Notes under the pieces: model-generated
Seen by the model: only the letters and a program-made list of their open reading frames with translations
The model's database searches: none
What the model was told of the DNA's origin: nothing
Shown here: positions 2,902-33,266 of the stretch, piece by piece
Layout: each line of letters starts with the position of its first letter
How positions within the stretch are numbered: position 1 is the stretch's first letter
NCBI GenBank assembly: GCA_001782165.1
Contig: MFNV01000002.1
Coordinates: 81,002-145,001, forward strand
Source of the DNA: Candidatus Levybacteria bacterium RIFCSPHIGHO2_01_FULL_41_15
GTDB lineage: Bacteria; Patescibacteriota; Microgenomatia; Levybacterales; UBA12049
DNA: 64,000 bases
Reading direction: 5' to 3'
Made by a program: the position numbers and the translations under genes

Positions 2902-5154
2902 TCAATCAAAGTTTGTTCTTTTAAGAAGTAAGGAATTCAGGACAACTGAAATCGAGGATGTTGCCATTGCCAAAGATGCAAATATCGGATTAAGAAGAAT
3001 CCCAAAAAAGGGATACAAAGCACCCATAGCAACAGGAATTAAACTTATATTATAACCAAAAGCCCAGAATAGATTTAATTTTATTGTTCTCATGGTTTTT
3101 TTAGAAAGTTCAATTGCTTTTGCTACAGATCTTAAGTCTTTATTTACAAGCGTTATATCCGCCGCTTCAATTGCTACATCTGTCCCCGAGCCAATAGCAA
3201 TTCCCACATCTGATGCGGCAAGTGCGGGAGCATCGTTTATCCCGTCTCCTACCATTGCAACTGTCTTTCCCTCTTTTTGAATGTTCCTCACCTCTTTTTC
3301 TTTATCCTCCGGTAGAACTTCCGAGAGCACTCTTTTTATTCCGACTTTTTGAGCTATCGCACTTGCGGTTCTTTGATTGTCTCCTGTAATCATTACAACT
3401 TCAATGCCTCTTTTATAAAGTGCTTTGACTCCTTCTGATGCAGTTTCTTTCAGGGTATCAGCTACAGCAATAAGACCCTTTAGTTCCTTGTTAACGGCAA
3501 GTATCATAACTGTTTTTCCCCCATTTTCAAGCGCCTCTACTTTATCTTCCTGTCCTTTAATTGAGATATTTTCTTTTTCCATTAGTTTCCGATTGCCTAA
3601 AAGAATGTTTTGTCTTTCGATAGTTCCCCTTACGCCAAATCCCGGAATTGCCTTAAACTGTGAAACTTTTTCAAGTTTCATGTTTTGCTCCTCGCTCTTT
3701 TTTACGATTGCTTCGGCAAGCGAATGTTCTGACCCTTTTTCCAAAGATGCCGCAAGTTGCAGCACCGACCTAGCAGGTCCGAAGCCTTTGACCTGCGAAG
3801 TCGAAACAATGTCTGTCACTTCAGGCTTCCCTTTTGTAAGGGTTCCAGTCTTGTCAAAAATTACCGTATCTATCTTATGAGCTGTTTCAAGGCTTTTTGC
3901 ATCTTTTATAAGAATTCCGTTCTCCGCTCCTCTACCTGTCCCTACCATAATAGCTGTCGGAGTTGCCAAGCCCATGGCGCAAGGGCAGGCGATGATAAGA
4001 ACTGCGACAGTATTAAGCATTGCAAACAGAAATGAAGGTGTGGGTCCTAGGATATACCAGAGGGCAAACGTAATGATTGCGAGTATGATTACAATTGGAA
4101 CGAAATAAGAGGAAACCAAGTCTGCCAATCGTTGAATCGGAGCCTTAGATCCCTGAGCCTCCTCTACAAGTTTTATAATTTGCGAAAGCATAGTTTCCTG
4201 TCCTACCTTGGTGGCTTTATAAACAAAAGTTCCGGTTTTATTGATGGTTGAGCCAATCACAGTATCCCCTTTTGTTTTATCAGACGGGATACTTTCTCCT
4301 GTTACCATTGATTCATCAACTGAGGAATCACCTTCCAAAATTTCTCCATCAACCGGTATCTTCTCACCCGGTCTTACCCTGATAACATCACCTATAACTA
4401 CTTGTTCTATAGGAATATCTACTTCTTTTCCCTTTCTTAATACTCTTGCTGTTTTAGCTTGCAGCCCAATTAATTTTTTGATTGCTTCAGATGTGCCAGC
4501 TTTAGCTTTGGCTTCAAAGTATCTACCCAATAAAATTAAACCAATAATAATAGTTGCTACGTCAAAATAAGGAGCAGGTTCAACCCCTATGTTTTTAACA
4601 ACCTGCGGAAAGACAGTAACAAAGGCAGAATAGAAATAAGCAACGGTTGTACCTATGGTAACAAGAGTATCCATGTTGGCAGTTCTGTGTTTGAGGGCAG
4701 GAATCGTGGCTCTGTAAAATTCAAATCCTGCCCAAAATTGTACAGGCGTTGCAAGAAGAAGTTGAATCCAAAAATTTTTCAAAATCAAAGGAGCAGTTTC
4801 TATAAGGGCCGGAAAGCTTCCCCAAACTAAGAATGTGCCTATGATAAGGCTTAAGCTTACTTTGTTTCTTAATTTTCTGATTTCTCTTAGTTTTTCTTTT
4901 TTTTCTTCATCTTCTATTGCCTCTCCTTGGTTTAAAATAGCTTCATATCCTACACTTGCTACTGCTGAAGAAAACTCTCTGTCCCCTGCTTTGTTAGGAT
5001 TATAGGTAACGGTTGCCTTTTCAGTTGCAAGATTTACATTAGCATCACTCACTCCCTCAATTTTTTTAAATGTTTCCTCAAGTATCCGCACGCATGATGC
5101 GCAATGCATGCCCTTTATTAAAAAGCTCCGCTTGGTCAATTGGTTGTTTAACAT
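2902..5154 (-). CDS. copA: copper-translocating P1B-type ATPase
   Basis: N-terminal HMA domain GMHCASC, CPC motif ([11 protein letters not shown]), DKTGTLT phosphorylation site, [10 protein letters not shown] hinge. 750 aa. Confidence 0.95.
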
Positions 5155-5179
5155 ATTTGATTATCTGAGTAGCTAAGAA

Positions 5180-5545
5180 TTAACCACCAACAATAATTTT
5201 TCCATGAAACATATTCATTCCGCAGGAAAATTTAAATTCTCCTTTTTCTTTAGGATTAATCTCAACCGTCACTTTCTGATTTAAGGGCAGAAACTTTCTG
5301 ATATTAAAATCCGGCAGTACAACTTCCTCCAGACAACCTGAAGGGTCTTTTCTTAAAAAATTTATCTTTGTCTTTTTTCCTTTTGAAACTTCGATAACTT
5401 CTGGCGAGTAACCTCCGTCTATTGTAATATCAATACTATCTTCAGTTACTTTGATGACCTTATCTTTCTTCATCAAAAAAAACCAGAAGGTAAATAAAGC
5501 TCCAATCAAAGATGCAAAAGCTACGATAGTTTTGTCAATACCCAT
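5180..5545 (-). CDS. cupredoxin-like copper-binding protein (EfeO-type cupredoxin domain), membrane-anchored
   Basis: N-terminal TM helix, then a beta-rich domain ending FSCGMNMFHGKIIV (Cys...Met...His Cu site). Lies directly upstream of copA in the same orientation. Confidence 0.5.
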   Translation of the reverse strand: MGIDKTIVAFASLIGALFTFWFFLMKKDKVIKVTEDSIDITIDGGYSPEVIEVSKGKKTKINFLRKDPSGCLEEVVLPDFNIRKFLPLNQKVTVEINPKEKGEFKFSCGMNMFHGKIIVGG

Positions 5546-5549
5546 AATC

Positions 5550-5561
5550 CCCCCTAGGGGG
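5550..5561. promoter_or_regulatory. perfect 12-bp GC palindrome CCCCCTAGGGGG (candidate CsoR-type copper-responsive operator) overlapping the RBS region of the cupredoxin-copA operon
   Basis: aatCCCCCCTAGGGGGat lies 5-16 nt upstream of the cupredoxin start codon on the minus strand and about 120 nt upstream of dinB on the plus strand. C-tract/G-tract inverted repeats are characteristic of CsoR operators. Confidence 0.35.
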
Positions 5562-5679
5562 ATAGTAGCATGGAACCAGAGTTTCAGTCAAGAGGTACAA
5601 AAAAATTTAAACAATCTTGATGTCAAAAGTATCCTTTTGTCGTATTGTTTTTTTTCGTATTTTGTTCTACTTTTGTATT

Positions 5680-6969
5680 ATGAATCAGACCTGCCTTTCG
5701 GCGAGGCAAGTAATTCTTCATATCGACTTTGATTCGTTTTTTGCAAGCGTTGAACAGGAATATAATTCTAAGCTTCGGGGAAAACCCATAGGGGTCACGG
5801 CTACAAACGGAAGAACCTGTATTATTGCATCAAGCCGTGAGGCAAAAAAATTGGGAATTAAGACAGGAAGCAGATCCTATGATGCATTTAAAATCTGCCC
5901 TAGTTTAATTCTTGTTCCTGCTGATTTTGTCAAATACTTTGAGGTCTCTAAAAAGTTTCTTAGGATTTCCCAAGATTTTACTCCCTTTATTGAACTCTTT
6001 TCAATTGATGAAGTATTTATGGATATTACCCCTACCCTCCATTTATTTAATGATAATCCCCACAGAATTATTTTTGAAATTAAAAAAAGGATAAAAGAAG
6101 AAATTGGGGAATTTATAACGGTATCCGTTGGTATTTCTCATAATAGGCTTTTGGCCAAACTTGCCTCAGGCCTTAAAAAACCGGATGGAATATTTGAGAT
6201 TAATAAAGCAAATTTAGATAAAGTTTATAAAAATGCAAAACTTACAGACGTCTGCGGGATAGGTGAGCGAATCGCCGACAGATTAAATAAACTAGGGATA
6301 TATAATCTTTTGGATCTAAGGAATGAAAATATTCATATTCTGGAAAAGGAATTTGGGAAAGTTTATTCTAATGTTCTCAAGAACATTGGAATAGGTTTTG
6401 ACGATTCGCAAGTTGTTCCCTACACATTGGCACCAGATGTAAAATCTGTAGGAAGAAATTATTGTTTGCCTGCCAATGAATTTAATAAAAGAAAAATTCT
6501 ACAAAATACTTATGAACTGTGGGAAGAAGTCTGTATTAAGCTTCGAAGACTGAATAAAAAAGCAAGGACAATAGGATTTTCTTTGCGCGGAAATATCAAT
6601 ATTCATAAGAGAAAAACTTTTAATTTCCATTTTGATGATTCTAGGCAGATTTTTAATTTATTCAATTCTCTTTTTGATGAGGATAAAAATATATTTAATA
6701 AGAAGGGTTCTTATATTAGACAAATAAGCGTTTGGGTTTCCTCTTTGGAAGACGCGAAAAATCTGACCCTCCCGCTTTTTGATACAAATTATAAAAATAA
6801 TAAACTTTTATCTGCGGTTGATAAAATTAATGAACGTTTTGGGGATCATACAATTCGAAACGGCTTTCTCCTCTACTCCGATAAGCTTACGACAGTCCCC
6901 AACGGCTACATGGCAGATAAATACGAAAGGACCAAGCTCGCAAGGGAGTCAACTTTGGCTCCTGCATAA
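5680..6969 (+). CDS. dinB: DNA polymerase IV (Y-family translesion polymerase)
   Basis: ILHIDFDSFFASVEQ catalytic motif, then SIDEVFMDIT, VSVGISHNRLLAKLAS and a little-finger region. Start moved from the longest ORF (5617) to the in-frame ATG at 5680. Confidence 0.85.
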   Translation: MNQTCLSARQVILHIDFDSFFASVEQEYNSKLRGKPIGVTATNGRTCIIASSREAKKLGIKTGSRSYDAFKICPSLILVPADFVKYFEVSKKFLRISQDFTPFIELFSIDEVFMDITPTLHLFNDNPHRIIFEIKKRIKEEIGEFITVSVGISHNRLLAKLASGLKKPDGIFEINKANLDKVYKNAKLTDVCGIGERIADRLNKLGIYNLLDLRNENIHILEKEFGKVYSNVLKNIGIGFDDSQVVPYTLAPDVKSVGRNYCLPANEFNKRKILQNTYELWEEVCIKLRRLNKKARTIGFSLRGNINIHKRKTFNFHFDDSRQIFNLFNSLFDEDKNIFNKKGSYIRQISVWVSSLEDAKNLTLPLFDTNYKNNKLLSAVDKINERFGDHTIRNGFLLYSDKLTTVPNGYMADKYERTKLARESTLAPA

Positions 6970-7764
6970 AAAGTTCATCTCGGAGAGAACTTTTTCTTCC
7001 TGATCGGGGTTTAATCCCAAAATACTAATTTGGGATGGGTTCAGGCATATGTTTTTGCAAAGGACAATTCCATGAAGAAGAAGCATTTGCTTTTGGGAAG
7101 CAGTTAAGGATCTTATTGAGGTTATAGGATAAAGTTTTGCCTCCTCAACAAGTTCTCTTAGGCTTGCCTTTTCTGGATAATCCCAGCTTATTACCGTAAT
7201 TCCGCAGCAAAGTGAATATTTGAGAGCATCAGAGCTGACTTTGGTATTTGTGGTAATTAAGGCATGGTCAAAATGGTGCTGATATCTTAAGTCATCGAAT
7301 CTTGCTTTAGTATACAAAGCTACATGAACATCGGATTTTATTCCTGCTCCGTTGTGGAATTTTGCCTCTACCATAATTCGTTTTCCCCCTTTTTCTGCAA
7401 TTACATCTATCTCATGAGTGACGCATTTGCCCGCAAGAATTTGTCTTACTTTTGTTTCATATCCTTGAGTTTTTAGAATTTCAGAAATGTAATCCTCAAA
7501 CGGATAACCCGTAGGACCGAGCTCCATAATTCCCTTTTTTAAATTATATTTTGTTGCCAGAAACGGAGATGGTGAAGCATCAAGAAATTCGATTATATGG
7601 TCGTAGATTTCTCCTGTTGTTATATTTTCATACAATTTTGATTTAACATGGGTTAATACCTGTTCCTGAATATCATACGGAATTCCTGCTCTTTCAATTG
7701 AATTCAGAACCTTTTCTTCGGAAAACGGCTCCTTTTCCCCTGAGGCCTTGAGAACTGTAACCAT
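6949..7764 (-). CDS. ATP-cone domain fused to Mrr-like (PD-(D/E)xK) restriction endonuclease domain plus about 100-aa C-terminal region of unknown function
   Basis: N-terminus VLKASGEKEPFSEEKVLNSIERAG... (ATP-cone as in NrdR/RNR). Middle VTHEIDVIAEKGGKRIMVEAKFHN is the D-x(n)-E-x-K nuclease motif of Mrr_cat. Convergent with dinB and overlaps it by 21 bp. Confidence 0.55.
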   Translation of the reverse strand: MVTVLKASGEKEPFSEEKVLNSIERAGIPYDIQEQVLTHVKSKLYENITTGEIYDHIIEFLDASPSPFLATKYNLKKGIMELGPTGYPFEDYISEILKTQGYETKVRQILAGKCVTHEIDVIAEKGGKRIMVEAKFHNGAGIKSDVHVALYTKARFDDLRYQHHFDHALITTNTKVSSDALKYSLCCGITVISWDYPEKASLRELVEEAKLYPITSIRSLTASQKQMLLLHGIVLCKNICLNPSQISILGLNPDQEEKVLSEMNFLCRSQS

Positions 7765-7806
7765 ATTATTATCGTAGATGTTTTTGGAATAGTTTTACAA
7801 GAGGTG

Positions 7807-10194
7807 CTATTTTATTAACTTTCTCTTGAAAGCAATATAATCTTTTTTTTCGTATAAAATCTCAAATCTGGTGTCTTGTTTTAATTTTTCCGCTAATTCT
7901 TTTTGCGCCTCAAGAGAGGGTTGGGCAAAGGGATCGTTAAGAAGAAAAACTACATAATCTGCCTCCCCTACTCCAATTGGAATAGTAAAAATTTTTTGCC
8001 TTTGGGACAAATGAGAACCAAGATTGTTGGTTGCCGCTACACTTGCCTGTCTTGGAATTTTTTCCAATACATTTTCTATCTCGTCCCTTTCGGTAAGCTG
8101 GTTTGTAAAGACAGCTATATTTGCTTTTTTGGAAAATGGAAGCGGTCCCAAAAGATAAGAAGAATAGACTGCAAATAAAATAAGATAGAGGCCAAAAATC
8201 CGAGTGGGAATTTTTTGGAATTTTTTCATAATAAATCTAACACTGTAGATGGAAGAAATAAATAAGAATGGAACTATAGTTGAATTGTAATGATAGTAAA
8301 TTTCTCTTAACTGGGAATTTGCGCTTAATAGATTTATAAAAAAATCAGGAAGGGCAAAGAGAATAAATGGACTTAAGAACGGTAAGAATCCCAAGTTTAG
8401 AGTCAATGTATATAAATAATAAAATGGATTTCCCTGAAGAATCAGCGAGACTGTTTTTATGGGCGAGAAAATAAAATTGCCGATTATACTAGAGGGAGAA
8501 TCCCCCAGCTCTGAATAGTAAGATAATGCAAAATGCTCCGAGCCTTTAACAGCAGGAATTATCCTTGCAACAAGAAGGTAAAAAATCAAAAAAGAGATTA
8601 AAGCTAATAGACCACCAATCCACTTTCTTTTCCCTTTTATAAAAAGGTAAGTTCCAAAGATTCCCGCGATAGGCCAAACGTTCTCTTTAGAAAGAACAGC
8701 AAGAAATAGAAAAGATAAAAATGGAATTAATCTTTTTTTTACCATAAGATAAAAAGCTCCAAGAAGTAGAGTCGTTGAAATTGTTACCGGATGAAAATCA
8801 TAGAGGTTAGCATGCTGAATGTGCGGATTAAAAAGATATGCAACGGAAAAGATAAGTGAAAGATTTTTATTTTTTAAAACCTCTTTTGATATCAAAAAAA
8901 TAAACAGTGCTCCAAATGCCAAAACTATGGATTGAAGCACAAGTAGCATCTTTGGATGCGACCAGATAAGATAAAGAGGAGAAATTAAGATTAATATAAA
9001 ATCTGAATGAAAGGAAAGACGTGAAATTATATTCGTTCCGTCCGGATTTGTAAACTGAAAAATTCTTCCGTTTATGGTATTCCAGACCGTCTGATCCATA
9101 TTCCCCAAATCAAATCTTCCCGTAAAAAAATTATCGTAACGAAGGAAACTTACCGATGTGAAATAAAATATATAGCCAAATATTAAAATACAAAGAATCG
9201 CTTCTCTTAAGTTTCTTTCTAAAAAATTCTCTGCTTTTAGAAAAAATTTGTTTTTTATGTTTCTTAAACCAGCTACAATCAGAACAAATAAAACTTCCGA
9301 GATAATTAATACAATTCTTGCAAATATCGAGGACAATCCTGCTATTTCAAGAGGAATAAGCTTGGCAAGTCCATATGTTATAAACCCTTCCCTTACTCCC
9401 AAGCCCATCGGAGCAATAACGGACAAAAAACTTACAAGGAAAGAAAGAGCGAAAAAACCGGTTAAGTATAGGCTTTTGTCAACCGGAAGATAGACAATTG
9501 AGGAAACTGCAAGATATGATGCGAAGGAAAAGGCAAAAAAAGAGGCGGAGGAGATGAAAACAAGAATAAAGTTTTCATATGGGTTAAATCTGGGAAGAAC
9601 AAGAAAAATATAATTAAACGGCTTGGGAAGATTAACTTTCCTGATTATTTTTTTGTTGAAGATATAGAGAGTTGTAAGAATAAGGGCCAATAAGATAATT
9701 AAAAAAGAAAAGATGCTGTTTTTAACAAGAGTTAAATATTGAAAAACAAAAGGAATCGAGAATAAAGAAATAATAAAAGCACCTGTGGCAATTAGACTGA
9801 TCTCCGAAAGAATCATACTCGCAATCGTTTCCTTATCTACTCCTTTTTTTGAGAAAGAAACGGTTTTGCCTAAATAGGACCAGATAAATCCCGGAACAAA
9901 TCTTCTAAACTCTGCCATGGTCCAGAGATATGAGGTTTCCTTAAAGGGGATGTTGTATCCATTGAAGATTAATAACTTTTGCCACGTTAGGGCTCTTAGA
10001 AAGAAAAATATAAGAAAGAAAAAAAATGAAGGAATAAGAAGGAATAAATTCGGAGTTATAAGGTAGGGAAAGACTTCATTAAAATTTGAGAATATTAGAT
10101 TCGTTAAGAAAACTAATGCGACAGCTGAAATTGGCCATCCCAAAAGGTATTTGAGACTTTTTAAGAAAACCTCCTTCCTTGATTTTTTATTCAT
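7807..10194 (-). CDS. large polytopic membrane protein: N-terminal flippase-like (UPF0104/LPG-synthase-TM-like) region fused to a DUF2079-like GT-C-type domain
   Basis: 795 aa, more than 20 predicted TM segments. C-terminal soluble tail ...[27 protein letters not shown]... resembles DUF2079 termini. Confidence 0.35.
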
Positions 10195-11380
10195 ATCGCA
10201 AGGCTTCGATTGGAGAAAGTTTCGAGGCTCTTATAGCAGGAGCCATTCCAAATACAACTCCTACTATAACAGAAAATCCAAAAGCGATAAATACAGACCA
10301 TATTGTAACTTGAGATACCAAAAGTCTTGCAAGGATCAATGATCCTGTTATGCCTAGCATTATGCCGATTACTCCTCCTGTTAAGGAAAGAATAACTGCC
10401 TCAAGAAGAAATTGCTTTAATATATCAGCTCTTCTTGCGCCAAGTGCTTTTCTAAGACCTATTTCACGGGTTCTTTCTGTAACTGAAACAAGCATTATGT
10501 TTGCAACACCGATGCCTCCAACTAGAAGGGAAATTGCCGCAATGCCGCCCAAAGCAAGCGATAAAATATTAGTTACATTGGTGACAATTTCAAGACTTGA
10601 TTCTGCAGTTTGTATAGTGAATTCATCTTTGGTCAACCGTTTAAGAAGAACACTGCTAATCTGGTCTTTTATAAATGGAATTTGAGATTCGTTGTTTGCC
10701 GAGATATAAATAGCATTGACTTGATTTACGCCAAACTGCCTTTTAGCCGAAGATAAAGGAATTATGACAGTATTGTCCTGATCGATTCCAAAAATTGCTC
10801 CGCGTTTCTTTAAAACACCGATGACAGTGTAAATGTTGTTTCCTATAAAAAATCTTTTGCCGACAGGTTCCTCAAGTTCAAATAGGTTATTTTTAACGGT
10901 CTGTCCTATTACGGCAACTTTTGCACCTGATAACTCCTGGCTTTGGGAAAAATATCTTCCATGCTCAACGACCGCGTTCTTGACAGTCTTAGTATAATTT
11001 GCAGTTGTCCCAAGTATAGATGTTTCCTCGTCATCTTTGTTTTGATACTTTGCAGTTGTTATTTGCTGAATGACAGGTGCAATGTCGGCCACATTCTTTA
11101 ACTTTACCGAAAGATTTTGGGAATCTTGGATCAGAAGTTTATTTACCATAACTCCTCCGGGGGTTCTTGCGCCTCCTAGTCTTCCGGGAATTATAAATAT
11201 TAAATTTGACCCAAATCCCTGTATCTGATTTGTTATATACGTCTGAAGCCCTGAAGCAATTGAAACCAGAAGAATAATTGCAAATACGCCTATTACAATT
11301 CCTAAAGTTGTTAAAAAACTTCGAAGCTTATTTGCCAATAGCGCTCTCCATGACAGTTTTAGAAGTTCGTTTAAGTCCAT
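10187..11380 (-). CDS. ABC transporter permease, MacB/FtsX family
   Basis: N-terminal TM, large periplasmic MacB_PCD-like domain, then C-terminal FtsX 3-TM bundle ([27 protein letters not shown]). 397 aa. Confidence 0.85.
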
Positions 11381-11382
11381 GT

Positions 11383-12057
11383 TTAGCTAATTTTTCCGTC
11401 AATAAGTTCAATAACTCTTTTTGCGTGTTTTGCGATATCTCTTTCGTGCGTTATGAGGATAATTGTTTTCCCTTCTCTATTCAATTTTTTTAACAAGCGC
11501 ATAACATCCTGTCCTGATTTTATATCCAGGTTTCCTGTTGGTTCGTCGGCCAAAATTAAATCGGGATTATTCATTAAGGCTCTTGCAATCGCAACTCTCT
11601 GTTGCTGTCCTCCTGAAAGCCGATTCGGTCTTTTGCTCTCTTGTTCAAGAAGGTCGAGTTTCAAAAGCAAGTTTCTTCCTTTTTCTTCCCTTGTTTTTTT
11701 ATCGACGCCGGCATAAATCCCTGGAAGGATAACATTTTCTAAAACCGTAGAACGAGGAAGAAGATTAAAGGATTGAAATACAAAACCTATTTTTCTGTTT
11801 CTTAGATCCGACAGTTCATCTTCTTTAAACTTTAAAACATCTGCTTCTTCAAGGATATATGAACCGTTTGTTGGAGTATCCAAAAGTCCGATAAGGTTCA
11901 TGAGGGTGGATTTTCCGGATCCCGACCTTCCTGTTATGGCGATAAACTCTCCCCGTTTTACCTTAAGGTAGATCCCCTTCAATACTTTTGTGACAACGTC
12001 ACCTATCACATAATCTTTGGTTATATTTATGAGATTTATTAACTCTTGATCTTTCAT
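11383..12057 (-). CDS. ABC transporter ATP-binding protein (MacB/LolD-type)
   Basis: Walker [13 protein letters not shown] signature [15 protein letters not shown], Walker [14 protein letters not shown]-loop ITHE. Confidence 0.95.
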
Positions 12058-12065
12058 CTCTCACT

Positions 12066-13169
12066 TTAACGTCTTAAGAATCTTCTCAAAAATGGGATTC
12101 TCAAATCCCCTTGTTTTGGTATTGAGCTTATATCGCTTGCAATTGTGTCGTTTTCTGACAGCCCTTCTGTAATTTCTGCTCTTGTATCGCTCTGAAGTCC
12201 TAGTTTTACTTTTTTTTGCGAGAACCCGGATTCTGTTTTTACATATACATTATCGTCTTCAATGGCCGATAAAGGAACTGATAAAACATTATTTTTTTCG
12301 CTTATGATAATTTCGGCATTTCCATTCATCCCAACCCGATATTTGTAATCTTTGTAATCAGGAGGTATCGGTATCTTTGCCGATACGGTGAAAGCATCAC
12401 CTCCCGTTGATGTGGTATGAGATACGTAATCGATGCCATCAATAGTTAAAGCAAGTGTTTCATCGGGATAGGAATCGAGAACTACTCTTACTGATTGTCC
12501 TACTTTTACTTTTCCTATATCCGCCTGGTCTACGTCCATCTCAAAATTTAACGAATTTAAATCTGTTACCATAAATGTCGTTGTTGTTGAAATATTTATA
12601 CCTTGGGTTTCTGCATCTGCTTTTGTAATCACTCCTGATATTGGAGTTATAAGAGCAGACTCTTCTCTAGCAAGATCTGCAAGTTCAACCGACTTTACGG
12701 ATTTATCAAGATCATATTGATTATTTTGAAGAATTCTTCTCATGCTTTCATTTAATGCACCCTCGATGGTTCTATTTTGATTATTTTCTTTTGTTTGGTC
12801 AAAGGTAAGTCTCTGTTTTGAATAATCAATGAGCGCAATTTCTAAATTTTTCTGCACAGTTCGCTCGTCCAACGCTCCGATTGTCTGATTGGCATAAACA
12901 TAGTCCCCCTTTTTAACCCCCAAATAAACCAGCTTTCCTGAGACCCTAAAGCTTAAATTTACCGTGTTACTAGAGTCAACGCTGCCTGTAATAGAGATTG
13001 TTTGAGAAATATTTTCTTTTCTTACTTTTTCTGTGGCAACCGGAGTCTGTTCTCCGGGCTTAAAGACAAATAAAATTACTATAAGGGCTAGTAAAATAAC
13101 AAATGAAATTATTTTATGGATTTTTACAAATTGGATCGCAAAATCAACCCATTTTCTAAAATTCTTCAT
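12066..13169 (-). CDS. efflux periplasmic adaptor / HlyD-family protein (MacA-like)
   Basis: N-terminal TM anchor, biotinyl-lipoyl-like (VKKGDYVYANQTIGAL) and beta-barrel segments. Operon with the ABC ATPase and permease. Confidence 0.7.
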   Translation of the reverse strand: MKNFRKWVDFAIQFVKIHKIISFVILLALIVILFVFKPGEQTPVATEKVRKENISQTISITGSVDSSNTVNLSFRVSGKLVYLGVKKGDYVYANQTIGALDERTVQKNLEIALIDYSKQRLTFDQTKENNQNRTIEGALNESMRRILQNNQYDLDKSVKSVELADLAREESALITPISGVITKADAETQGINISTTTTFMVTDLNSLNFEMDVDQADIGKVKVGQSVRVVLDSYPDETLALTIDGIDYVSHTTSTGGDAFTVSAKIPIPPDYKDYKYRVGMNGNAEIIISEKNNVLSVPLSAIEDDNVYVKTESGFSQKKVKLGLQSDTRAEITEGLSENDTIASDISSIPKQGDLRIPFLRRFLRR

Positions 13170-24422: not shown

Positions 24423-25082
24423 ATGCCAAACATTGGCGAAACATTAGTAACCTCTATTAACATAGGTCTTTCAGCTCTTGTTGCCTTTGTCCCTAAGTTT
24501 GTTCTGGGATTAATAATTCTTCTCATCGGTATTATCGTAGCTTCAATTCTCAAACAAGTCGTTCTTGAATTATTCAAGGCTCTTAGAATTGAATCATTTC
24601 TTAAGAAATACGGGGTGCCAGAGGCAAAAGATGAGTTTGCATGGTCAAGTATTCTGGCAGAAATCGTTCGCTGGTTTGTGATAATTATATTTTTACTGCC
24701 GACAGCAGACGTGTGGGGGCTTCCAAGAGTCGATGTTGTACTAAATCAGGTAATTCTCTACCTACCGAACGTGTTTGTAGCGGTAATTATTATATTGGTA
24801 GGATTTGTAGTGGCAAGACTTGCGCATGACGTGATCCTCGCTTCAACAAAAGGAATATCAGCAGAAACATCAAGAACGGTTGCCTCAATTACGAGATGGG
24901 CAATCAGTATTTTTGTAATTTTGGCTGCGCTAAATCAGCTTGGTGTTGCGTCGGATCTTATAAAAATACTCTTCACGGGATTTGTTGCGATGCTTGCGAT
25001 TGCAGGAGGAATAGCATTTGGGCTGGGCGGCCAGAGCAGCGCAAGGGATATAGTCGAAGATATAAGAGGAAAGCTTAAATAG
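24423..25082 (+). CDS. membrane protein with conserved-TM-helix repeats (MscS-associated TM_helix family-like)
   Basis: 219 aa, repeated about 50-aa modules each with a long hydrophobic helix (e.g. LGLIILLIGIIVASIL / VAVIIILVGFVVARLA / IFVILAALNQLGVASD). Confidence 0.4.
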   Translation: MPNIGETLVTSINIGLSALVAFVPKFVLGLIILLIGIIVASILKQVVLELFKALRIESFLKKYGVPEAKDEFAWSSILAEIVRWFVIIIFLLPTADVWGLPRVDVVLNQVILYLPNVFVAVIIILVGFVVARLAHDVILASTKGISAETSRTVASITRWAISIFVILAALNQLGVASDLIKILFTGFVAMLAIAGGIAFGLGGQSSARDIVEDIRGKLK

Positions 25083-32618: not shown

Positions 32619-33266
32619 TTAAAACTTTCTTACAAGACCAACAACCTTACCCTGAAGAATAAGTTTGTTTGGGTATATAGGATCCATCTGTGAATTGGCG
32701 GGCTTTAATACTACTCTTCCGTCTTCTTTATAATATTTTTTTAATGTTGCGAGGTTATCATCGACTATTGCAACTACTATATCCCCATTTGCTATATCAA
32801 TTTCTTTCTCAATAACCACATAATCTCCATCAAGTATCCCATCTTCTATTAAAGACGAACCTTTTATCTTAAGCACATAGGCAGTTCTTTTTCCGGAAAG
32901 AAGTGAAGCTGAAACCTGAAAAGTTGCGTTCGGATCTGTGTGGGGCTCCAGAGGTTTTCCCGCAGCTATATAGCCCATCAAAGGAAGATCTATAGAAGGC
33001 TGAACTCCCAGAAAATTCATTTTTACCTTGTCTTCAATAATCTTAAGAACCCTGGTATTTCCTTCTACTTTCTGCACATACCCTTTCTCCACCAAGGATC
33101 TTATGAGAGCGTGGATTGTCGATTTGCTTCTGTGATTGGTCGCCTTTGCAAGCTCAGAAAGAGTCGGAGAATATCCGTATTGGGCTTGAAATTGCGCAAG
33201 ATATTCCAGAAGCTCCCTTTCTTTCTTATATAGAACACCGGCCATACGTTCCGCTCCGCTCAGCAT
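32619..33266 (-). CDS. lexA: LexA repressor (SOS regulator, S24 peptidase)
   Basis: N-terminal wHTH (LSELAKATNHRSKSTIHALIRSLVEKGYV), AAG cleavage site (YIAAGKP), Ser/Lys dyad region (KGSSLIEDGI...ATLKKY). Confidence 0.85.
   Translation of the reverse strand: MLSGAERMAGVLYKKERELLEYLAQFQAQYGYSPTLSELAKATNHRSKSTIHALIRSLVEKGYVQKVEGNTRVLKIIEDKVKMNFLGVQPSIDLPLMGYIAAGKPLEPHTDPNATFQVSASLLSGKRTAYVLKIKGSSLIEDGILDGDYVVIEKEIDIANGDIVVAIVDDNLATLKKYYKEDGRVVLKPANSQMDPIYPNKLILQGKVVGLVRKF

Follow-up and report, generated by a model that had tools for sequence, protein, structure and literature searches.

The minus-strand open reading frame at bp 6949-7764 of the window (the whole 64-kb stretch of Candidatus Levybacteria DNA analyzed here) is a real gene, as the earlier note had proposed. 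Its 271-amino-acid product is identical to GenBank OGH23710.1/OGH35298.1, a Candidatus Levybacteria "hypothetical protein". The gene is convergent with dinB and overlaps it at the stop-proximal end of the nuclease open reading frame, also as described earlier. The features of the locus are as follows:

6949-7764, minus strand: nuclease gene, 271-aa open reading frame (ATP-cone, PD-(D/E)xK nuclease, and (HhH)2-like domain)
7546-7758, minus strand: ATP-cone sensor domain, residues 3-73 (Pfam PF03477)
7492-7542, minus strand: sensor-nuclease linker, residues 75-91, LKxxIMxLGPTGYPFED, with invariant G83-P84-x-G86-x-P88-F89-E90
7213-7509, minus strand: PD-(D/E)xK (Mrr_cat) nuclease core, Pfam residues 86-184 (PF04471)
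7405-7407, 7366-7368, and 7360-7362, minus strand: predicted catalytic residues D120, E133, and K135, respectively, of the PD-(D/E)xK motif
6952-7179, minus strand: C-terminal AF1548-like domain, residues 196-271, with a five-helix Rad51-N-terminal/(HhH)2/SAM-like fold
5680-6969, plus strand: dinB (Y-family polymerase), convergent, with a 21-bp 3' overlap with the nuclease gene
7807-10194, minus strand: LPG_synthase_TM + DUF2079 membrane protein gene, upstream of the nuclease gene on the same strand, with a 42-bp gap

The assignment of the N-terminal region to the ATP-cone family is upheld by its HMM match, predicted fold, and conserved residues. Residues 3-73 score 32.6 bits against PF03477, a modest value that passes the gathering score of 25.8, and the predicted fold (AlphaFold2 model of the whole protein; pLDDT 92.4, pTM 0.85) is a helical bundle with a small beta-sheet lid that can be superposed on the cones of the ribonucleotide reductases (RNRs) and NrdR. 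Sequence similarity to NrdR is weak (profile E~0.01), and the protein is not itself an NrdR; it scores 15.2 bits with the equivalog model TIGR00244, whose cut-off is 124.65, and has no N-terminal Cys4 Zn ribbon. Nevertheless, K6, E12, P13, F14, K18, and T50 align with E. coli NrdR K53, E59, P60, F61, K65, and S105, and of the latter K53, E59, F61, K65, and S105 are adenine/phosphate contacts. In the family alignments K6 is invariant and conservation reaches at least 90% at F14, K18, and T50; the cone is retained in nearly all family members. The canonical KR dipeptide is KA in the Levybacteria cone and KS at the same position in E. coli NrdR; archaeal members keep KR. An equivalence between the family's Y73 and NrdR Y131, the ATP/dATP discriminator, was considered and dropped, as Y73 pairs with F127 in the profile alignment.

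No other segment of the protein is as conserved as the linker that follows; mean pairwise identities are 61-65% there, 43-58% in the nuclease, and 33-45% in the cone. The linker contains E90 (bp 7495-7497), which is predicted to be the acidic residue that the N-terminal helix contributes to the active site. The nuclease domain with its D-E-K motif is likewise confirmed, by its HMM score (28.3 bits for residues 86-184 against a gathering score of 21), its predicted fold, and its conserved residues; E90, D120, E133, and K135 are invariant in the family alignments (A2 and A7). The domain is thus a putative DNA nuclease with a predicted active site of E90/D120/E133/K135. The counterparts of D120, E133, and K135 in PDB entry 1Y88 are D38, E51, and K53 (PMC1874628). 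The label "Mrr-type" given to it previously is correct for the catalytic-domain family and goes no further, since the N-terminal DNA reader of Mrr is missing by Pfam.

The C-terminal region had been called uncharacterized, which proves to be wrong; it is a known domain of solved structure. Residues 92-263 match 1Y88 (AF1548 of Archaeoglobus fulgidus) with E=2e-32, and the last ~75 amino acids have a Rad51-N-terminal/(HhH)2-like fold, with non-sequence-specific DNA binding and/or dimerization as the predicted role. This sequence and structural homology over both the nuclease and the C-terminal domain (PF22357) places the protein in the AF1548 family. AF1548 itself (PF04471 + PF22357; COG1787) is a structural-genomics entry without assigned function, and it has no ATP-cone, linker, or linker Glu, whereas the Levybacteria protein has all three. 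These parts are absent because a 1-nt deletion has split a 265-aa ATP-cone gene, of which the 174-aa AF_1548 is the downstream (3') piece; orthologs without this break are 265 aa long and have a canonical cone. WP_287793228.1 is an example of an intact ortholog from Archaeoglobus/Ferroglobus. Thus, the sole structure for the family is that of the truncated product of a frameshifted gene, which hid the sensor domain. Since the A. fulgidus lineage tolerates a cone-removing frameshift, the intact protein cannot be indispensable in all lineages.

Members of the family, which comprises more than 4,700 clusters at 90% identity, typically share this three-domain architecture, and it occurs in Patescibacteria, in Bacteroidota such as Mariniflexile and Flagellimonas, and in many Archaea. 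The family is abundant in Patescibacteria and DPANN-type archaea (a genome scan used a 15-sequence family alignment as query) and is kept in the reduced genomes of CPR and DPANN. To judge from its sequence, the encoded protein, which lacks a signal peptide, is a cytoplasmic, standalone three-domain AF1548-family enzyme, and this family is catalogued and widely conserved without functional characterization: we found no functional study of an ATP-cone-nuclease fusion, AF1548, 1Y88, or COG1787 in the literature. A mention of COG1787 in Prochlorococcus concerns no more than a copy-number correlation. Database relatives carry names such as "restriction endonuclease".

The nuclease gene ends a tightly packed string of genes, HlyD-ABC-MacB-DUF2079-nuclease (bp 6949-13169), and no terminator-like site is present in the 42-bp gap behind the DUF2079 gene; consensus scans for promoters and terminators around the nuclease gene gave nothing above chance. 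Among 23 loci of the Levybacteria clade, the DUF2079 gene adjoins the nuclease gene on the same strand in 18, and dinB adjoins it on the opposite strand in 13 and is a conserved downstream neighbor in that clade only. The argument from a DNA-damage locus is therefore weak, since dinB adjacency is the only part of it that is conserved. The window contains no GAAC-N4-GTTC (SOS) box, and no clear palindrome is common to the regions upstream of lexA/uvrB and dinB. Synteny is clade-specific, with the order DUF2079-nuclease-dinB in Levybacteria and entirely different neighbors in other clades, and about 160 related loci have no universal partner gene; as no partner is conserved across phyla, context gives no firm role. 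Upstream MscS, CorA/DUF389, and permease-Usp genes in a first set of archaeal loci, and DUF2079, MgtC, and P-type ATPase genes in bacteria, had raised the idea of a membrane-transport or Mg2+ partner. This was rejected, as none recurs in a set of 79 metagenome loci, and the transport-gene neighbors are clade-local synteny. In Bacteroidota the neighbors include a beta-CASP nuclease (6-9 loci), Usp, Hsp20, PFK, and 2-hydroxyacid dehydrogenase, and the Usp/Hsp20/PFK/beta-CASP cluster looks like a stress or energy-limitation response.

The cognate DNA methyltransferase that adjoins type I, II, or III restriction nucleases is missing here, and the restriction-modification reading was rejected. The earlier note's remark that no methyltransferase is adjacent holds for the 64-kb window and for the ~160 related loci, which do not display the consistent adjacency that would mark an ordinary restriction-modification component. 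No DNA methyltransferase family is among the 25 most frequent Pfam families of the immediate neighbors (sets of 77, 78, 68, and 61 proteins, in which any family outside these 25 has at most one or two members per set), and no combination of amino- or C5-methyltransferase motifs is present in 778 open reading frames within three genes on either side at related loci. A phage origin was also discarded, as viral contigs yielded no relative. Gene order is stable, and divergence follows that of housekeeping neighbors in three separate clades. Such behavior is that of a chromosomal maintenance gene passed on vertically, not of a restriction-modification or mobile defense module.

On balance, it seems rather probable that the AF1548-family protein is a standalone, vertically inherited, ATP/dATP-gated nuclease of chromosomal maintenance rather than of restriction or mobile defense. 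The ATP-cone would bind adenine nucleotides, ATP and/or dATP, and the highly conserved linker would lead straight from it into the PD-(D/E)xK nuclease, with the C-terminal Rad51-N/(HhH)2-like domain gripping DNA by its backbone and reading neither sequence nor modification. By analogy with RNRs and NrdR, nucleotide in the cone would alter the quaternary structure or the cone-linker-nuclease geometry, and this change would switch DNA cleavage on or off and so couple cutting to the dNTP/energy state of the cell. In RNRs (NrdA, NrdD, NrdB of L. blandensis) and NrdR the effector is a reductase or a Zn-ribbon DNA-binding domain, whereas here it would be a nuclease. A nucleotide-gated nuclease is a plausible and the leading model; that Mrr_cat relatives are mostly restriction enzymes and the placing of COG1787 in the defense category count against it. 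Its most likely task is to process DNA, either without sequence specificity or with specificity for structure, during repair or turnover, and the physiological role may lie in repair or processing, in salvage, or in defense. Given its size, its age, and its retention in the tiny genomes of CPR bacteria and DPANN-like archaea, the family probably has a basic function.

Salvage is the alternative that fares best, and we consider it unlikely. The nuclease would degrade imported or dispensable DNA for deoxynucleotide precursors at low dATP, in energy starvation, or in dormancy, an RNR logic in reverse. To our knowledge, all characterized ATP-cone proteins (RNRs and NrdR) serve dNTP homeostasis, and Patescibacteria and DPANN-type archaea, in which the family abounds, generally lack de novo nucleotide synthesis. 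Neighbors include YfbR-like 5'-deoxynucleotidase/HD_3 (3 loci), dCTP deaminase/dUTPase (2 loci), and thymidine/AMP-phosphorylase-like proteins with PRPP synthetase (2-3 loci), and the stress-like cluster of Bacteroidota would also fit. However, these associations are limited to a few loci of particular clades, Bacteroidota and Archaeoglobi synthesize their own nucleotides, a nuclease lacking a signal peptide would face its own chromosome, and a PD-(D/E)xK endonuclease alone releases no mononucleotides.

A solitary defense nuclease, whose cone would sense a phage-induced dNTP surge or ATP depletion and unleash non-specific cleavage in abortive infection or methyltransferase-free restriction, is more doubtful still. 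Restriction enzymes dominate the Mrr_cat family, the fold is near those of the cOA-activated Can2, Card1, and Cdn1 and the modification-dependent AspBHI and MspJI, COG1787 has been filed under defense (PMC3424549), and one relative (L007) adjoins SNF2/PLD/HTH genes that resemble a defense island. PADLOC gives a local match to the Mrr-like nuclease domain of ZorD (E=1.5e-6), but this best match in PADLOC-DB v2 covers only the nuclease tail (profile positions 950-1055 of 1071), no system is matched, and no Zorya genes lie nearby. The type III CRISPR ancillary nucleases Can2, Card1, and Cdn1 carry a CARF sensor, whereas the Levybacteria protein has an ATP-cone and an extra (HhH)2-like domain; only its nuclease half matches the CARF/SAVED effectors (Can2, Card1, Cap4) structurally, PADLOC matches to Csx1 and CARF_PDDEXK are weak (E~0.01), and neither Cas nor cyclase families recur among neighbors at related loci. 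The protein has no DNA-modification reader, its immediate neighbors are mostly housekeeping, stress, or transport genes with no recurring defense-type family, and retention in reduced genomes also argues against defense. Vertical inheritance, housekeeping contexts, and the lack of a viral or defense-island signal lean away from this role.

It is quite improbable that the protein is a constitutive structure-specific nuclease (Hjc/NucS/YraN-like) whose cone serves structure or oligomerization and no longer senses nucleotides, as (near) invariance of the NrdR adenine-contact residues across bacteria and archaea is unexpected for a purely structural domain; the cone's near-universal retention also speaks against this reading. 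NucS/EndoMS and archaeal Hjc have no nucleotide sensor, NucS possesses an N-terminal DNA-binding domain of its own together with a PCNA motif, and the Levybacteria protein belongs to neither at the sequence level (Hjc HMM, E=0.23). The resemblance to XPF/Mus81/UvrC-type nucleases is an analogy of architecture only; their nuclease domains belong to other subfamilies (ERCC4 and, in UvrC, GIY-YIG/RNase H). Least probable by far is an ordinary restriction endonuclease (a type II R subunit or type IV Mrr ortholog), which the Mrr_cat match and database names might suggest and which the neighborhood data effectively refute; vertical inheritance and an (HhH)2-type domain that confers no sequence specificity also oppose it. 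E. coli Mrr shares the catalytic-domain family and the lack of a methyltransferase, but its N-terminal winged helix reads modified DNA, whereas the Levybacteria protein has no Mrr_N winged-helix Pfam hit, begins with an ATP-cone, and has a predicted (HhH)2-like DNA-binding domain at its C-terminus.

The ATP-cone is the textbook dATP/ATP switch for dNTP supply and has been studied only in reductases and the repressor NrdR; with a nuclease on this switch, DNA cleavage too would come under nucleotide-pool sensing. A bolder extension of the gated-nuclease model, which we offer tentatively and regard as somewhat doubtful, would rank the family with RNRs and NrdR as a third functional class of ATP-cone protein: an ancient dATP/ATP-switched nuclease, conserved from Archaeoglobi, Korarchaeota, Bathyarchaeia, and DPANN to Patescibacteria and Bacteroidota, through which dNTP pool size would act directly on DNA cleavage. 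If so, cleavage would serve to process stalled forks or intermediates of repair, or else to degrade DNA for salvage. At ~270 aa, soluble by its looks, and present in cultured Bacteroidota and Archaeoglobales, the protein lends itself to an inexpensive test of the hypothesis.

The gene placed by the earlier note at window positions 6949-7764 (-) is a real, intact ORF that starts with ATG, encodes 271 amino acids and reads as it was quoted; its product has the same sequence as GenBank entries OGH23710.1/OGH35298.1, annotated "hypothetical protein" in Candidatus Levybacteria MAGs. The reported overlap with the convergent dinB gene is present and amounts to 21 bp. The mechanical ORF listing begins dinB at TTG (5617; 450 aa), and gene calls on identical contigs begin it at ATG (5680; 429 aa, 5680-6969); the IMS domain of the 450-aa form starts at residue 36. 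The nuclease gene is the last of five tightly packed minus-strand genes (6949-13169), whose gaps of 8, 2, -8 and 42 bp give the string an operon-like appearance, and a scan of 6700-8100, a segment that includes the gap between the DUF2079 and nuclease genes, turned up no terminator-like site. Features of the window are as follows.

12066-13169 (-), HlyD-like gene, first of the string
11383-12057 (-), ABC ATPase, second of the string
10187-11380 (-), MacB-type permease, third of the string
7807-10194 (-), LPG_synthase_TM+DUF2079 fusion (795 aa), directly upstream of the nuclease gene
6949-6951 (-), TGA stop codon of the nuclease gene, inside the 3' end of dinB
6967-6969 (+), stop codon of dinB, convergent with the nuclease gene
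32619-33266 (-), lexA (LexA_DNA_bind + Peptidase_S24), divergent from uvrB
39404-41182, Pol X-family polymerase
47794-51021, DnaE

The case for a DNA-damage locus is weak: dinB adjoins the nuclease gene, and uvrC, uvrA, lexA and uvrB lie 10-26 kb away among other genes (RNase HII, CofD, CysRS, glycolytic genes and others). The ORF beside uvrA (24423-25082, +) is not lexA; its product is a membrane protein that has a mechanosensitive-channel TM helix.

Both domains that had been proposed score above their Pfam cut-offs, the ATP-cone at residues 3-73 (E=1.2e-7; 32.6 bits, cut-off 25.8) and Mrr_cat at residues 86-184 (E=2.1e-6; 28.3 bits, cut-off 21). AF1548-like_C matches residues 212-262 below threshold, no NCBIfam model scored above cut-off, and the sole PADLOC match is to the nuclease tail of ZorD. 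The C-terminus, earlier taken for an uncharacterised Cys-containing region, is instead a known domain: residues 92-263 match Archaeoglobus fulgidus AF1548 among PDB sequences (1Y88; E=2.1e-32, ~50% identity), and the family profile matches 1Y88 at E=4e-55. This match, a confident AlphaFold2 model built with 29 homologues as input (pLDDT 92.4, pTM 0.85) and a Foldseek comparison in agreement identify the tail (residues 196-271) as a Rad51-N/(HhH)2-like module. Such modules serve in DNA-backbone binding or dimerisation in XPF/Mus81/UvrC-type nucleases; the window protein is analogous to XPF/Mus81-type enzymes in its nuclease-(HhH)2 order and is not a member of that group.

A 1-nt deletion has split the gene to which AF_1548 belongs: AF_1548 is the downstream 174-aa piece, and intact orthologues encode 265 aa. 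In the database, the protein closest to 1Y88 in sequence comes from Archaeoglobus sp. (P0271/WP_287793228.1, 265 aa, 99% identical) and has a canonical cone, MLRVRKRDGRLEEF...; A. fulgidus contigs encoding AF_1548 have a 47-aa ATP-cone ORF just upstream. Nucleotide alignment of the frameshifted with the intact Archaeoglobus gene (L172:1229-2025 vs L088:6001-6798) finds one G missing at ORF position 116, which shifts the frame; what remains of the cone, and the linker, can be read in the +2 frame. Since this version occurs in 19 contigs, the frameshift is probably genuine in that lineage. Because AF1548 is a fragment, sensor, linker and linker Glu are all missing from 1Y88, the one structure solved for this family, and the cone is therefore nowhere mentioned in the analyses that predicted AF1548 as a nuclease (PMC1821046, PMC1874628) or grouped 1Y88 with Mrr_cat/COG1787 (PMC3424549).

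Along with its three domains, the window protein has conserved functional residues and a conserved linker (residues 75-91, between cone and nuclease). Among 56 diverse representatives, the invariant positions include K6 and G9 (cone), G83-P84-x-G86 and F89-E90 (linker), and E118, D120, E133, K135, R155, D158 and N173 (nuclease), while conservation reaches at least 90% at F14, K18, T50 and P88; the pattern in 14 archaeal members matches. In E. coli NrdR the adenine is covered by K53, E59 and K65, the hydrophobic pocket consists of V51, F61, L66 and I108, N6 is read by the P60 carbonyl, and S54/S105 contact phosphate (bioRxiv 10.1101/2025.03.28.645925). HMMER alignments place the NrdR nucleotide-contact positions at V4, K6, E12, P13, F14, K18, V19, T50 and I53 of the window protein. 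That it has "KA" where "KR" is canonical does not disqualify it as a cone, since E. coli NrdR has "KS" there and archaeal family members retain "KRDGR". Mean pairwise identity is 61-65% in the linker, 43-58% in the nuclease, 33-45% in the cone and 31-39% in the tail; that the linker is better conserved than cone or nuclease and ends in the catalytic-helix Glu is as expected of a sensor-effector coupling element. C114 (7423-7425) and C186 (7207-7209) are at least 90% conserved in bacterial and archaeal members, H137 is nearly invariant, and archaeal members have H or Q at the position of H117; these four may form a structural or metal-binding cluster by the active site.

The family is broad and old. 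There are 4,709 relatives at E<=1e-3 in a 90%-identity database and 1,090 related clusters in a 50%-identity library (435 at E<=1e-30), the best 150 of which are nearly all 265-295 aa and align end to end. Scanning species-representative genomes with a sequence pattern gave relatives in at least 594, including Patescibacteria (Levy-, Gottesman-, Davies-, Paceibacteria, Kaiser-, Zambryski-, Wildermuthbacteria and "Saccharibacteria"-labelled MAGs), Bacteroidota such as the cultured Mariniflexile aquimaris and Flagellimonas flava, and one Anaerolineales MAG; at least 560 further stretches came from a metagenome scan, and the viral contigs searched yielded none. An AF1548-core query found archaeal relatives in Archaeoglobus, Geoglobus, Ferroglobus, Korarchaeota, Bathyarchaeia, Aenigmarchaeota, Altiarchaeales and Nanoarchaeota, and its matches are nearly all 260-290 aa with PF03477, PF04471 and PF22357.

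On balance we lean toward a gated maintenance nuclease. The cone would bind ATP/dATP, and binding would alter assembly or the geometry of cone, linker and nuclease, on the pattern of RNR and NrdR; this change would gate a Mg2+-dependent endonuclease that may hold DNA through the (HhH)2-like module without sequence specificity. Can2/Card1, which likewise join a ligand sensor to a PD-(D/E)xK nuclease, would be functional analogues; the window protein is not one of them.

ORFs were called and clustered in 80 bacterial loci. In the Levybacteria-type clade (23 loci, 50-77% identity), DUF2079 lies upstream on the same strand in 18 and convergent dinB downstream in 13, and the outer flanks vary. Loci with DUF2079-nuclease-dinB synteny and 50-77% identical proteins (L008, L011, L012, L018, L020, L021, L027, L028) include several MAGs titled "uncultured Gammaproteobacteria bacterium", probably taxonomic mislabels. 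Paceibacteria-type loci (~17) have MnmA, MltG, a sigma-like protein, AlaRS, family-4 UDG and a Cas4/RecB-like PD-(D/E)xK protein as neighbours; in a Paceibacteria-type clade MgtC follows the homologue (5 loci). In three Archaeoglobales genomes the overlapping or abutting upstream gene is MscS, CorA or a permease-Usp fusion (transport genes upstream or downstream at L088:5193-6035; L090:4958-6001, 6783-7721; L091:3722-5998), and in Ferroglobus a DUF389 gene abuts downstream. This membrane-transport pattern did not recur in the wider metagenome set, whose 79 loci have no recurrent partner gene at all.

A role in salvage or turnover when nucleotides or energy are limiting is the strongest alternative, though an unlikely one. 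Bacteroidota same-strand clusters, which resemble a gene cluster for stress or energy limitation, include a beta-CASP metallo-beta-lactamase in 6-9 loci, Usp paralogues, Hsp20, PFK, 2-hydroxyacid dehydrogenase and P-type cation ATPases, and in 2-3 loci a thymidine/AMP-phosphorylase-like protein and PRPP synthetase; these associations are clade-specific. The clusters noted at nine loci (L038, L040, L042, L060, L063, L070, L077, L085, L086; ~3000-11000) contain 1-3 Usp genes and a beta-CASP/RMMBL nuclease immediately downstream.

A solitary defence nuclease, to which the ZorD match might point, is less likely still. R-M, CRISPR, CBASS, viral or known defence-system context is absent, and inheritance is core-like: within clades the nuclease (~54% pairwise identity) equals DinB (54%) and MnmA (55%) and tracks its neighbours' identity (Spearman 0.46-0.64), a pattern that marks vertical co-inheritance with housekeeping genes rather than a mobile defence gene. 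A constitutive junction or repair nuclease with an inert cone is improbable, the cone residues that align with the NrdR adenine contacts being invariant or nearly so. An ordinary restriction enzyme, despite the Mrr-type domain, is the least credible reading: as the earlier note held, the window gene has no adjacent methyltransferase, and in related loci there is no DNA methyltransferase family among the top-25 Pfam families listed for 284 immediate neighbours and no MTase motif combination among 778 ORFs within +-3 genes of relatives.

Our literature search found no paper describing or testing the ATP-cone-nuclease architecture. The protein is best described as catalogued but uncharacterised, combining two known kinds, ATP-cone allostery and ligand-gated PD-(D/E)xK nucleases; a gated maintenance nuclease is a clean, cheap-to-test hypothesis on a large conserved family, though not one to startle a specialist. 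The architecture already appears in public annotation as "ATP cone domain-containing protein" and "Restriction endonuclease/ATP cone domain".
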